From Candidatus Kapaibacterium sp. (lineage in GTDB: Bacteria > Bacteroidota > Ignavibacteria > Kapaibacteriales > JAEUSM01): a stretch of DNA of 64,000 nt. Below the pieces are notes generated by a model that saw nothing but the letters and a program-made list of their open reading frames with translations, did not search any database and was not told the DNA's origin. The translations under genes and the position numbers were made by a program. Positions 46,590-50,664 of this stretch are shown here, piece by piece; the first letter of the stretch is position 1; each line of letters starts with the position of its first letter. The stretch covers positions 77,676 to 141,675 of the forward strand of contig JAEUSM010000017.1 of NCBI GenBank assembly GCA_016788785.1, read 5' to 3'.

Positions 46590-46676
46590 GTAGGATTGGT
46601 TGGGAGGTAATTTAAATCAAAAACCATTTCAAAGTTGATTTGAAGTAGCTTAAGATTAATATTACACTCTATAAAT

Positions 46677-47432
46677 CTAAGGATTATTCCAACAATTTGT
46701 ATAACATGGTTTAGACCCATATTTACTTTGTAAAGAACAGTCAGTAACAGACGTTATTTTGGTTTCTTTAATTCGTAATATTAAGGATCGGGATTCAGAG
46801 TTTCCTGCCTCAGGGTCTGTACTACTTACATCTGTACATACTTTATACGTTTTCTTACAACAATTATAACCACACTTCTGCCATTTAGTATATACAGCAC
46901 ACCCAGGGTACAAAATAGATTCAGGATATGGAGGTGTATATCCTCGATCACAATTGCGAGTTGAACTTCCTACTATAGCATAATTACATTCTAAAAAAAT
47001 TCCACAACTTGCAGTGAAAAAATTCACCCAAGTCACACTATCAATACAACCAGTGGTTGAATTTCTAATCCAAGGCAAAGAATCATGACCTCTTTGTACC
47101 CAATGATCTTGCATTAATCCTAATTCAACCGAAGAGCGTAGAGAGGCAAATTCATAGTGCTCCATTTTAAATTCTCTCAAGAATCCAGCATTATCAACTG
47201 TAGAAACACTTAATATATCAATCTCTAAAACACCATTACAGTACCTATACCGATAAGTAACAAATGCAAATTGATCAAATTTAAAACTAAGCTGAACTCT
47301 TCTATTTGGAACAGTTTCTCTCCATTCACAATTTGACGAATCACCTGGACATACAATGTTATTATCCCATTGACAAAATACTCCAGTAAATGACGTCAGA
47401 AAAACAATGATTGAAATTATATAAATTTTCAT
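46677..47432 (-). CDS. Secreted cysteine-rich hypothetical protein (paralog B)
   Basis: Signal peptide; 16 Cys; shares motifs with 49498..50280. Confidence 0.8.
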   Translation of the reverse strand: MKIYIISIIVFLTSFTGVFCQWDNNIVCPGDSSNCEWRETVPNRRVQLSFKFDQFAFVTYRYRYCNGVLEIDILSVSTVDNAGFLREFKMEHYEFASLRSSVELGLMQDHWVQRGHDSLPWIRNSTTGCIDSVTWVNFFTASCGIFLECNYAIVGSSTRNCDRGYTPPYPESILYPGCAVYTKWQKCGYNCCKKTYKVCTDVSSTDPEAGNSESRSLILRIKETKITSVTDCSLQSKYGSKPCYTNCWNNP

Positions 47433-47442
47433 TTGCTATTTC

Positions 47443-48021
47443 CTAATTATTAATAATAATTCTCATGCTTTCTAAATTTTCAAATGTTCGAAGAACCAAT
47501 TGATATTCACCATTTGGAATATTCTTTAACGGAATTTGAAATCTATGTTGTCCAATTTCTACATTTTGATTGAATAGATTATAATCCATGGGACTATTAA
47601 TTGAAAGTAAACTAATTTCAACAAAAGAAACGTTAAAAAGTTTGAAACCAATTTCTAATAAAATATCTTTTTTATTGAACTCTGCTGTTAAGCTTAATGG
47701 TCCTTGTGATTGAAACTGATTTTGAGTTTTACTCCAAGTCCCATTATTTACTATAGAATATTTTTCACCTGATAAAGTTTCATACTCAATAGTCAGCGGT
47801 TTTTGTGCATTTACAAACTTTGAAAAGTATTTACTACTTGGTAATACATTAATTTCTGTCCATGTAGATTTCCCATTAAATTCGAAAATTGACCCATCAA
47901 CTCGTTTAATTATAAATACAACATTGTTTTCTAATACGTTCTCGTCAAAAATATTTTTTTTTGTTTGCGAAAATGAAGAAGATATACAAATTATAAATGT
48001 AAAGAGACATATGACTTTCAT
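47443..48021 (-). CDS. Small secreted protein with T9SS-CTD/FlgD-like C-terminal Ig domain
   Basis: Signal peptide; C-terminal IGFKL...VEISLL...GQHRFQIPLKNIPNGEYQLVL...IIIN. Confidence 0.65.
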   Translation of the reverse strand: MKVICLFTFIICISSSFSQTKKNIFDENVLENNVVFIIKRVDGSIFEFNGKSTWTEINVLPSSKYFSKFVNAQKPLTIEYETLSGEKYSIVNNGTWSKTQNQFQSQGPLSLTAEFNKKDILLEIGFKLFNVSFVEISLLSINSPMDYNLFNQNVEIGQHRFQIPLKNIPNGEYQLVLRTFENLESMRIIINN

Positions 48022-48026
48022 TAAGC

Positions 48027-49496
48027 TTATTCCTTTATAAATACTGATTGAATTATAGATTTGTTATTTTTGAAAATCATAACAATGTAACATCCACTAA
48101 TCAGATTTTCTGTATTTATTCTAATTTGATTTTCATTAGAAAATGTTCGTTCTTCTTTAACTACATTTCCATTTATGTCACTTAGTTTATAGAATATTTC
48201 TTGATTATTACCAATTTTTGAATTTTGAATGGTAATTATTTTTTCAAAAGAAACTGGATTTGGGTACAATTGGATATTTTCTATTTCTCTATCTTTGATA
48301 GAAGTTATATTATCAGGAAAAAATTGTAATAAGGGAGGACCATTTCTTCCAGCGTAAATACTTTTTGTTTCACCTGAATAATCTATAAAAGAATAGGATG
48401 GTGACTCTAACATGAAACTACTATTACCTCCATTATAGAATATAGAATTTTTAAATATAGTCTCATTAGTATATTCTGTAAAAACTTTTCTGTCTGAGTG
48501 AAGTTTATATATTGAAGGATAGAAATGTGGTTTAATTTTTAAATGAGAATAAACAAACCAAATATTATCTTCATCATCAATAGAAAAAGAATTAGAACGA
48601 TATGTACTTTTTTGTATACCTATATTGTCATTGTATAGAAAAATAGTACCATCTTGTTTTATCTCTACTAAACCAACGAAATTTATGAATAACTTTCTAA
48701 TTCCAGTGGAATCTTCTTTAATTTCATCATACGATTGAGTTAACAACCAAAATGAACCTTTTGAATCAAACAAATAGTCAGTGAATCTAACATTCTCTTG
48801 TATGAATCCAAAGTTTTTAAGATTTGGAATAGTGTCCTTCCTTAATATATTACCTTCAACAGAATATGTAACATATTCCCATTTGTATTTTCTATCTGCT
48901 TCTTCAAAGGTAAGAATAGTATATGTACCATTCTTATTTAACTTTAGTTTTTGATACGCAGAAAAAAAACCTTCTTGGGGTTCAGACCAGCGTGACTTAA
49001 CAGTTGTAAAAACACCATTTTTAAACTTTAGTAACTCATGATAAATTTTTCCAATATGAACTACACTCCCTGTACTTCCAACAACTATCTGTGAAAAAGC
49101 AGTAATCAATAACGATGAATCTGCTAATTCAATCATTCCTTCGAATCTGCGACGATGATATAAAGTATCGTAAATTGCATGCTTTTTCCAATCTTTTCCA
49201 TCATATTCCCAAAGATGATATTGACCAGTAACATAAAGATTATCTGTATACTTTGAAAATATACATTGTGAATTGTGTAAATGAATCGTCGGCATAGTAT
49301 CTTGAGATATATTTTGCCAATTTTTTCCATTGAAGAACTGAGTTGTTATAATGTCATTACCATTTTGGGGTATACTAAATGTTAATGCTTTGTTCCCCTT
49401 TGTAGACAATGAACTAGTTGCTCCAACAAAGGATGAATCAAAAATTTGAGCATTTAATGAAACTGTAAAAACAAAAAATAGAATTATTGTTTTCAT
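48027..49496 (-). CDS. T9SS type A CTD protein, probable beta-propeller
   Basis: Signal peptide MKTIILFF (ATG 49496); FDSKGSFWL and IDDEDNIWF blade motifs; CTD LYPNPV...DINGNVV...ENLISGCYIV...FIKE. Confidence 0.8.
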   Translation of the reverse strand: MKTIILFFVFTVSLNAQIFDSSFVGATSSLSTKGNKALTFSIPQNGNDIITTQFFNGKNWQNISQDTMPTIHLHNSQCIFSKYTDNLYVTGQYHLWEYDGKDWKKHAIYDTLYHRRRFEGMIELADSSLLITAFSQIVVGSTGSVVHIGKIYHELLKFKNGVFTTVKSRWSEPQEGFFSAYQKLKLNKNGTYTILTFEEADRKYKWEYVTYSVEGNILRKDTIPNLKNFGFIQENVRFTDYLFDSKGSFWLLTQSYDEIKEDSTGIRKLFINFVGLVEIKQDGTIFLYNDNIGIQKSTYRSNSFSIDDEDNIWFVYSHLKIKPHFYPSIYKLHSDRKVFTEYTNETIFKNSIFYNGGNSSFMLESPSYSFIDYSGETKSIYAGRNGPPLLQFFPDNITSIKDREIENIQLYPNPVSFEKIITIQNSKIGNNQEIFYKLSDINGNVVKEERTFSNENQIRINTENLISGCYIVMIFKNNKSIIQSVFIKE

Positions 49497-49497
49497 T

Positions 49498-50280
49498 TTA
49501 GCATCCATCCTGACAAGGAATATCATAATCATCTTGTTTTGTACATTGAGGAGTTTTTTTTGCTCTGCTAATCGATAAAGATCTAATTTCTACAATCATT
49601 CTTTTTATTGGTGGGTTAACCGGAGCAGGATCAATTACTTCCCATCTTCGTAATTGATACGTTTTTTGACAACAGACAGTACCACACGGTTGCCACTTGT
49701 AAATATGTAGAGAATCTGCACCAAAAAGAGTTGAATCGATAGGTAGTGGTGGATCATATCCTGTATCACATTCTACTGCCTTTCTCCATACATAGTAACT
49801 GCATTTTAGCCAAACACCACATGAAGCCTTATATAACTGCACAACCGGAGTGGTCACTTGACCTGTTTCTTCCCATTCCATAAAATCATTGTTATTATAA
49901 TGGTGCTGCAATAAATAAATATCTGCCAAATCGCTAAAGGCATTATACTGATAGTGATATCTATTTATACTATCTAGGAATCTGCCGTTATCTAATGCAA
50001 TGGCAGAATCTATATACATTTGGTTAATTCCATTACATATTCTGTATCGATAATATATATGTCCAGTTATTCCACTTCCCATATTTCCTAAATAATTAGA
50101 ATAACTCCAATCTACGGTACAAGAGTCAGAGTCTGCACAGTTAAGTGTATCTTGCGAATACACATTTTCGACGGTAAAGATGAGTAAGAATACACTCATC
50201 CACATAATTAGTTTGAGGATTTGGTTCATCCCTTGTTGTTTTGTAGAATGTTCCAACGAAGAAAGACGATTTGGTTTCAT
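49498..50280 (-). CDS. Secreted cysteine-rich hypothetical protein (paralog A)
   Basis: Signal peptide ending VYS-Q (alternative start 50229); 12 Cys; shares motifs with 46677..47432. Confidence 0.8.
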   Translation of the reverse strand: MKPNRLSSLEHSTKQQGMNQILKLIMWMSVFLLIFTVENVYSQDTLNCADSDSCTVDWSYSNYLGNMGSGITGHIYYRYRICNGINQMYIDSAIALDNGRFLDSINRYHYQYNAFSDLADIYLLQHHYNNNDFMEWEETGQVTTPVVQLYKASCGVWLKCSYYVWRKAVECDTGYDPPLPIDSTLFGADSLHIYKWQPCGTVCCQKTYQLRRWEVIDPAPVNPPIKRMIVEIRSLSISRAKKTPQCTKQDDYDIPCQDGC

Positions 50281-50599
50281 AGGAGACTCTAATGAATTGT
50301 AAAAAATGTGATTTACATATAAACCACTTTGAAATAGAATTCTTTCAAAGTTACGAAATAAATTTTACATTGTGCAAACTTTGAAACAAAAAATTTCTTT
50401 ACTAATATCATTAAGATACTCTTAAGCTCGGTTTATGGGGGGGTAAGGTTGAAATTTTTATCTATTTTAAGGAAAATTTTATCTTTAGCCTATTCTAAAA
50501 TTCAATTACTCTATTTGGATATAGGGTTTGTTTCAATATTCCTTTATTCTCAATTGATTTTGTATGCGATTAGGTGTTGTGAATTTTTAATTTTAAAAT

Positions 50600-50645
50600 A
50601 AAAAAAGCCCCAATCACATCATTATAATGAAGTGATTGGAGCTTT
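50600..50645 (-). terminator. Intrinsic terminator after the carboxyltransferase
   Basis: AAAGCCCCAATCAC...GTGATTGGAGCTTT imperfect stem with U tail on the minus strand. Confidence 0.65.
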
Positions 50646-50664
50646 GATTTTGATATAGGTACCT

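Follow-up and report, generated by a model that had tools for sequence, protein, structure and literature searches.

A conserved two-gene unit in the Kapaibacteriales: a cysteine-rich protein family encoded in front of proteins with type IX secretion sorting domains

Introduction

Substrates of the T9SS (type IX secretion system) are currently recognised by a C-terminal sorting domain (CTD), and predictions of Bacteroidota secretomes depend on that rule. The system transports folded proteins, as outlined in PMC9251779. Dedicated partners have so far been described only for cargo with a type B CTD: in Flavobacterium johnsoniae, and in the PorP-PG1035 pair of Porphyromonas gingivalis, a linked PorP/SprF-like accessory protein binds the cargo and decides its fate, in the account given by PMC12618676 and PMC9143113. 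A further point of comparison is PorA of P. gingivalis, which PMC12152298 presents as a small protein, little more than a CTD, linked to a pathway with an extracytoplasmic function (ECF) sigma factor. Here we analyse a four-gene cassette at positions 46677-50280 of a 64,000-nucleotide stretch of Candidatus Kapaibacterium sp. DNA (contig JAEUSM010000017.1, positions 77,676 to 141,675 of the forward strand; hereafter the window), in which two genes of a cysteine-rich protein family (Cys) flank genes for two proteins, P and S, of families with CTDs of type A. The cassette had been singled out in an earlier sequence-only reading of the window. The module turns out to be real, conserved, undescribed, associated with the T9SS and narrow in its range.

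The cassette in the window

The listing of open reading frames (ORFs) places the four genes head to tail on the minus strand between 46677 and 50280, in the order CysA-P-S-CysB:

49498..50280, minus strand: CysA, 260 aa; predicted signal peptide and a mature domain of ~218 aa with 12 Cys
48027..49496, minus strand: P, T9SS cargo; signal peptide, N-terminal domain of ~390 aa and type A CTD
48036..48269, minus strand: type A C-terminal sorting domain of P (PF18962, 46 bits in the genome-wide scan; residues 422-499 of the 501-aa ORF)
47443..48021, minus strand: S, 192 aa; signal peptide, N-terminal part of ~100 aa and degenerate type A CTD
46677..47432, minus strand: CysB, 251 aa; diverged paralogue of CysA whose complete ORF encodes 16 Cys; closes the cassette

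The intergenic gaps are 1, 5 and 10 nt when P is taken to start at 49496, an internal Met of the 501-aa ORF that opens at an in-frame ATG further upstream (49532), and CysA may start at Met18 (50229) instead of at 50280. With that start for P, the ORFs lie in the order, at the coordinates and with the gaps that the sequence-only reading had described. Two further observations of that reading, a signal peptide on every protein and a paralogous relationship between the outer two, were borne out as well. CysA and CysB are 31% identical across 197 residues (BLASTP, E 4e-28), which identifies them as paralogues at the level of sequence, and each of the four proteins has a predicted signal peptide in which an n-region with K/R leads into a hydrophobic core of 12 residues, followed by a cleavage-like SQ, AQ or CQ site. 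These calls were made with a crude script and by inspection, with no dedicated predictor, and the cores have mean Kyte-Doolittle hydropathies of 2.5-2.9; the predicted signal peptide of P, for example, is MKTIILFFVFTVSLNAQ, with a core mean of 2.60. No membrane-span-like segment was found by the same script beyond the signal peptide in any of the four. That all four proteins leave the cytoplasm is a firm prediction from these features.

Cys genes stand directly in front of CTD genes

We used the gene neighbourhoods of Cys relatives to find which part of this arrangement is conserved. The survey covered 51 sources (the window, a second cassette from the same genome, 4 genome-collection loci, 9 extended relatives, 10 metagenome loci and 26 further relatives), whose ORFs were classified with hidden Markov models (HMMs) built in this analysis. 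Left out were L001-L004 and L010-L025, which repeat, in shorter form, the window, L005 (the second cassette) or L026-L034; the context loci L071-L082; and L034 and L044, which have no HMM-passing Cys ORF of at least 60 aa. Three pairs of the rows are identical sequences from two records.

The 51 sources contain 59 Cys genes or fragments, four of which abut a contig end, leaving 55 that can be evaluated. In 45 of these 55, a P- or S-type CTD gene lies directly downstream on the same strand, consistent with the earlier proposal that homologues would neighbour T9SS CTD genes. Sorted by kind, the gene directly 3' of Cys on the same strand is P-type in 28 cases (20 by HMM and 8 through phmmer, which linked them to proteins of 450-545 aa with a CTD), S-type in 17, P-sized and unclassified in 3, and neither in 7. 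In four of these seven the Cys gene is the second and final one of its cassette, and P or S directly precedes it; the remaining three are L029, with a Por_Secre_tail protein upstream, L027, a lone Cys gene, and L008, an 81-aa remnant in the same-genus genome G410. Since there are only ~147 CTD matches in the 2.97-Mb genome from which the window comes, such adjacency goes beyond chance. Most pairs are separated by -11 to +30 nt and are often translationally coupled.

The orders in which the genes occur are C-P, C-S, C-P-S, C-P-C, C-P-C-S, C-S-P, C-S-C-P and C-P-S-C (C for Cys). Tandem duplication of Cys is specific to lineages, and in many cassettes each CTD gene has a Cys gene of its own before it (C-P-C-S, C-S-C-P). 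Thus, the invariant unit is a Cys gene followed by a CTD gene, found in many orders. The picture of two Cys genes flanking two CTD genes holds for the window and for the second cassette; what is conserved is the pair of one Cys gene and one CTD protein gene.

The relationship is not symmetrical. With a profile of the N-terminal domain of P, members are found in 107 of 254 genomes of the order and in seven places in the window genome (G000), which has only four Cys genes, all of them within the two cassettes. Five of the seven P paralogues of G000 have no adjoining Cys gene, and the two of them that were inspected are stand-alone genes with signal peptide and CTD. At a locus in genome G573 that is syntenic with the C-P-S cassette of a congener (L007), P alone has been kept. 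P therefore does not depend on Cys, and a Cys gene hardly ever lacks a CTD neighbour.

The Cys proteins form a family confined to one order

A word-indexed search of 5.8 billion proteins returned 22 relatives, all of them unnamed and free of Pfam domains. When 1.84 billion cluster representatives were scanned in full with the HMM, 137 family representatives came up at E<=1e-3, all of 52-274 aa and none fused to another domain; since none exceeds 274 aa, the family never has a CTD of its own. In a sample of the phylum the family was present in 8 of 401 genomes, all eight from the window's order, and within that order in 50 of 254 genomes and 30 of 82 genera. Contigs L006 and L007 from metagenome-assembled genomes are labelled Chloroflexota/Ignavibacteriae, and their Cys genes are identical to those of genomes G615 and G569 of the window's order. 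A contig labelled 'Hyphomicrobiales' (L009) also has a cassette, and we regard it as mis-binned because in the tree its Cys genes are placed among sequences from the window's order.

Twelve cysteine positions are conserved or nearly so across the family, and single proteins have between 11 and 22 cysteines, most often 16 (46 of 112 members). At least twelve conserved cysteines together with a signal peptide would place the proteins in an oxidising, extracytoplasmic location, and six or more disulfides are likely. None of the 112 members has a Pfam match at E<=1e-3; CysA and CysB have no NCBIfam match at E<=1, the Cys proteins have no match in PADLOC or PHROGs, and the best match of the Cys profile among PDB sequences has an E-value of 0.39. 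The Atlas search with CysA reached Bacteroidota clusters only, none of them named. This agrees with the view, already taken from sequence, that CysA and CysB belong to no described family, and no description of the family or of its gene arrangement was found in the open-access literature searched. Nodulin_late, the sole Pfam row for the Cys proteins, scores 16.9 bits against a cut-off of 30.4 and falls on the signal peptide.

An AlphaFold2 model of mature CysA, built on 112 aligned sequences, reached a mean pLDDT (predicted local distance difference test) of 90.3 and a pTM (predicted template modelling score) of 0.82. The predicted structure is a compact alpha/beta domain of long antiparallel strands and two helices. 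The Foldseek comparison with the PDB that the sequence-only reading had recommended gave no match to this model at E<=1e-3, and the exhaustive structural aligner VIA placed none of 48,161 chains at Z>=5. The best VIA score, Z 4.8, went to CamS-type lipoproteins (3n2q, 2qx2) and a GNAT protein (2g3a), and is well under the usual score of unmatched models according to the aligner's own note. An earlier model of CysA with a pLDDT of 73 likewise had no Foldseek match in the PDB at E<=1e-3, with a best VIA Z of 5.2. On these models, the Cys family is a candidate, not a proven case, for a new fold.

The leader of CysA shows a pattern of its own. The signal peptide, at residues 18-42 (residues 1-42 are encoded by window positions 50155-50280), has a mean identity of 77% among 18 CysA-type orthologues, compared with 51% for the mature part, so that the leader is the more conserved of the two, the reverse of the usual pattern; P orthologues have no comparably conserved leader. 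In an alignment read by eye, the leader differs from a decayed copy in G410 mostly at synonymous positions, which points to constraint on the leader peptide itself.

Two further ideas about the family were dropped. An unusually fast evolution of the Cys and P genes has no usable rate baseline, because flanking genes in the same-genus relative are anywhere from 54% to 91% identical. Near the cassette of one relative (L071, 11696-13294) there is a 532-aa Cys-rich protein with a type A CTD, whose motifs resemble those of the Cys family by eye. As a candidate Cys-CTD fusion it was rejected: the family HMM gives it only 3.7 bits, with filters off, in two short collinear pieces.

Sorting domains and N-terminal domains of P and S

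P exceeds the curated cut-offs of both CTD models, with 42.7 bits for PF18962 (Por_Secre_tail; cut-off 27) and 33.9 bits for TIGR04183 (cut-off 23), and PF18962 is matched by 30 of 30 P homologues from the protein database, many of which lie on contigs equal in length to those of Cys homologues. S requires more care. The window copy matches neither PF18962 nor TIGR04183 even at E<=1, and has no match in the genome-wide scan at E<=0.001. Five of ten S orthologues scanned do match PF18962, four of them above the 27-bit cut-off, and the S profile aligns with the C-terminal 117 columns of the P profile, out to both C-termini (hhalign probability 96%, E 4.3e-9). A T9SS CTD chain of solved structure (8glk_D, E 1.7e-5) is another match of the S profile, and 25 of the 30 Atlas feature neighbours of S are Por_Secre_tail clusters of small proteins. 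Compared with its orthologues, the window S has FNK in place of the PNP of most, and retains an NGEYQLVL segment and the hydrophobic end. Its CTD thus reads as degenerate, the domain being demonstrable in the S family as a whole. In contigs from two RNA-library runs of one study, an extra T follows position 47953, in an A-run just past the signal peptide of S; it would shift the frame of S, and at a depth of 2-3.4 an assembly error is possible.

The N-terminal domain of P may be, judging from its orthologues, a propeller of the Reg_prop kind. Reg_prop (PF07494, cut-off 20.4) is matched by the P orthologues of L007 (40.3 bits, E 1.6e-10) and L040 (39.3 bits, E 3.3e-10); those of L005 and L031 have matches below the 20.4-bit cut-off, and the Pfam scan found no Reg_prop match in the window copy. 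Two descriptions given in the sequence-only reading accordingly need qualification. The term 'propeller' is a putative one for P, taken from the orthologues of L007 and L040, with no match on the window copy. CTD-like ends on the middle two proteins only is right for P, which lies above the cut-offs, and for the Cys proteins, which have none; for the window S, which lies below the thresholds, it holds at family level only.

The machinery to which such domains would address a protein is encoded in the same genome. SprA (TIGR04189) is matched at 674.6 bits, above its cut-off, and there are 147 PF18962 matches at E<=0.001 in the 18 contigs and 2.97 Mb of G000. The GldM model matched in none of the genomes scanned, control genomes included, and is hence uninformative.

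Duplication and loss

The window genome contains a second complete cassette (contig G000:C18, positions 58000-71000, taken as L005; cassette at L005 2872-8920), with Cys, P, S and Cys proteins of 245, 494, 193 and 232 aa. It is flanked upstream by a DUF1573 protein and downstream by a 187-aa sigma-70-family protein of ECF type (region 2 and region 4) and an AraC-type regulator. In the Cys tree, CysA groups with the first Cys protein of the second cassette (support 97/77) and CysB is nearest to the last, on long branches, which suggests from the sequences that the cassette was duplicated as a whole.

On either flank of the cassette the window is collinear with the same-genus genome G410: an M16 peptidase, an oxidoreductase and a carboxyltransferase lie on one flank, and the other has a mutase-like protein, ClpS, a 201-aa protein and a TonB-dependent receptor. 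At the site of the cassette itself, where window positions 46590-50664 interrupt the collinear block, G410 has only ~900 bp with an 81-aa Cys remnant. Elsewhere in G410 (L075, G410:C88 2177-3912) lies a decaying cassette, in which two TGA stops interrupt the CysA leader and the P gene after it is broken into fragments of 141, 102 and 220 aa. The GC content of the window cassette is 30.3%, compared with a mean of 36.0% (sd 1.6), and is the lowest when set against 532 non-overlapping windows of cassette length; P and S are at 26-28%. The cassette therefore looks like a dispensable accessory island, gained in the window genome or lost in G410.

Expression and regulatory neighbours

Contigs from RNA libraries of two studies match parts of all four cassette genes at an identity of at least 99% and run across each of the three junctions, which fits one transcript without proving it, DNA carry-over being possible; the stretches that these contigs leave uncovered carry no information. 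A search for promoters gave a weak lead in front of CysA:

50346..50378, minus strand: promoter-like motif TTTG-N21-TAACTTTG, ~65 nt upstream of the first CysA ATG

The motif, searched with an assumed consensus, has 9 matches in the window compared with 4.4 expected (sd 1.95). A scan for sigma-70 promoters and terminators gave 33 sites compared with 24.9 expected and was uninformative. By eye, an inverted repeat followed by a T-run lies at 50600-50639, just after the carboxyltransferase gene, with a loop beyond the limit of the terminator scan. It looks like the terminator of the carboxyltransferase gene, which would make the cassette a transcription unit of its own.

In three loci from one other family of the order (L071, 6920-11338; L072; L073), the Cys gene follows a row of other genes: an ECF-type sigma factor, a ~400-aa protein and a 160-aa protein, then Cys and S. 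The ~400-aa and 160-aa proteins have no Pfam match, and the N-terminus of the latter is lipoprotein-like by eye. An AraC-type gene comes after Cys-S in one of the three loci (L071). A 160-aa gene directly upstream of Cys is common to seven loci, and the sigma factor beside the second cassette is homologous to that of L071-L073 (E 1.9e-12).

Discussion

We propose, tentatively, that Cys, stabilised by disulfides and lacking a CTD, is a subunit that binds the CTD-bearing protein encoded next to it and needs that protein for export or attachment to the surface. The cassette would then be an extracytoplasmic, T9SS-linked module built from a recurring two-gene unit, Cys followed by P or S, with P pictured as propeller-like and S as a small, beta-sandwich-like partner. 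After export by Sec and formation of its disulfides in the periplasm, Cys would bind the neighbour; the SprA/PorV pathway would recognise the neighbour, which would also provide the attachment to the surface; and the pair would end as a ligand-binding or adhesive complex, secreted or at the surface, whose expression in some lineages may be controlled by a dedicated ECF-type sigma factor. Because Cys is paired with both P and S, and the tails of the two align over 117 columns, their shared C-terminal region is a candidate docking surface. Since the T9SS moves folded proteins, according to the outline in PMC9251779, it could allow Cys to be carried by its partner. We infer the physical binding of Cys, its co-export and its surface location from the arrangement of the genes and the features of the proteins. 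Complex prediction for CysA residues 43-260 with the N-terminal domain of P (residues 18-405), using alignments A1 (CysA) and A3 (P), gave three uncontrolled runs that scored 0.75, 0.00 and 0.05, an outcome that tells on neither side of the question of binding. A stronger form of the proposal strikes us as doubtful: that the Cys family is a new fold, that its members are CTD-less passengers taken through the T9SS by a dedicated CTD carrier encoded next to them, and that S is a minimal carrier for docking and sorting.

Several observations weigh against a bound and carried Cys subunit. P-family genes are mostly without Cys, and Cys is thus apparently not needed for the secretion of P. Gene order and stoichiometry vary (1:1, 2:1, 1:2 and 2:2), and the CTD of the window S misses both HMM thresholds, so that this protein may not be exported. 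The module is dispensable, because it is missing at the syntenic site in G410 and decayed elsewhere in that genome. Finally, no precedent for a CTD-less T9SS passenger was found in the open-access literature searched.

Another way to view the module is as a periplasmic signalling device, in which S, and perhaps P, would be PorA-like and Cys a receptor or modulator of the CTD that feeds an adjacent pair of sigma and anti-sigma factors. The gene row of L071-L073 is what such a device might look like, with the ~400-aa protein in the position of the anti-sigma factor between the ECF-type sigma factor and the 160-aa, Cys and S proteins; the 160-aa gene directly precedes Cys in seven loci, the second cassette has a homologous sigma factor beside it, and AraC-type regulators follow in L005 and L071. 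There is also a model for it, as PMC12152298 describes the CTD of PorA binding PorY and activating PorXY-SigP. However, the window cassette has no adjoining regulator and most P loci show none in the flanks seen, 'anti-sigma' is for the ~400-aa protein a guess from position with no Pfam match behind it, and secreted proteins beside a sigma factor may simply belong to its regulon; we consider signalling unlikely. A further possibility is that the proteins are co-regulated and act independently in one shared niche function, Cys being a free binder, secreted or periplasmic, of a polymer or metal, for example. A patchy distribution (50 of 254 genomes, 30 of 82 genera), low GC content and loss or decay in a congener typify accessory niche genes. 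We nevertheless find independent action improbable, as the same-strand adjacency survives rearrangements and independent duplications and is tighter than co-regulation alone requires.

If Cys does bind P or S, it might do so transiently, as a cargo-specific periplasmic chaperone or inhibitor that would hold its partner in a soluble or inactive state and stay behind on export. Its gene lies upstream of the CTD gene, often translationally coupled to it (gaps of -11 to +30 nt), the protein lacks a CTD, and it needs a CTD neighbour while the reverse is untrue, all of which a helper of this kind could explain. It is hard, however, to reconcile with the five of seven P paralogues in G000 that do without such a helper, or with the absence from P and S, in Pfam scans, of an enzyme or toxin domain needing inhibition. 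Disulfide-rich, rigid folds are unusual for a holdase, and Cys has six or more likely disulfides and a rigid predicted fold; we rate the chaperone or inhibitor as quite unlikely. The sequence-only reading had offered an effector-immunity pair as its own alternative, one protein being a toxin secreted in bacterial competition and the other protecting the producer. Paired genes, variable sequence, patchy distribution and tandem duplication would all suit such a pair. This alternative has gained no support: scans of the four proteins and of 29 neighbours (Pfam, NCBIfam, PADLOC) brought up no toxin, nuclease, peptidase or defence domain, although an unfamiliar toxin fold may escape them, both partners have signal peptides, no His is among the conserved non-Cys residues of the Cys family, and P-family genes commonly stand without Cys, mostly alone. 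It is very improbable.

A family without a CTD whose genes nearly always stand immediately before a CTD gene is a candidate for one of two roles, a passenger that lacks the sorting signal or a cargo-specific periplasmic partner of type A cargo. If the carried, CTD-less Cys were true, it would be the first hitchhiker mode of the T9SS, and the T9SS secretome would be wider than the set of CTD proteins. The reach of the finding is limited by the confinement of the family to one order of uncultured bacteria from sludge, bioreactor and soil samples.

Comparison with known systems

Proposed carriage of this kind resembles the 'hitchhiker' route of the twin-arginine translocation (Tat) system and the 'piggyback' route into peroxisomes, in which a signal-less subunit is carried by a signal-bearing partner through a system for folded proteins, as the T9SS is in the outline of PMC9251779. 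The machinery and the membrane are different, and no T9SS case was found in the open-access literature searched.

The proteins themselves have partial counterparts. PorZ (PG1604, PDB 5M11) combines beta-propeller structure with a T9SS CTD, as P, a putative propeller protein, would, and is the best PDB match of the P profile (E 5.4e-6). The match, however, covers the CTD only (profile positions 368-474 against chain residues 637-741), and the PorZ chain has 758 residues, compared with ~390 aa for the N-terminal domain of P; PorZ has two propellers and is part of the attachment complex. The Reg_prop repeats of the P orthologues in L007 and L040 are shared with the Reg_prop (PF07494) hybrid two-component sensors of Bacteroidota. 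Unlike these sensors, P is secreted cargo without Y_Y_Y, kinase or receiver domains, and no Reg_prop match was found on the window copy. S resembles PorA in being small and mostly CTD, and in some lineages in standing beside an ECF-type sigma factor. The likeness is one of description, no relation in sequence was seen, the window cassette has no adjoining regulator, and we know of no Cys-rich partner of PorA.

The closest parallel is with the PorP/SprF pairs, in which, as here, the gene for a T9SS cargo protein goes together with an accessory gene dedicated to it. The differences are that the cargo here is type A, that the Cys gene precedes the cargo gene, and that the binding is a proposed one. 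The accessory proteins also differ in kind: CysA is modelled as a soluble, disulfide-rich alpha/beta protein of ~220 aa with no Pfam match, and not as an outer-membrane beta-barrel. Thus, because its cargo is type A and its partner soluble and disulfide-rich, we regard the Cys-CTD pair as a variant of the PorP/SprF logic and not as a member of that family.

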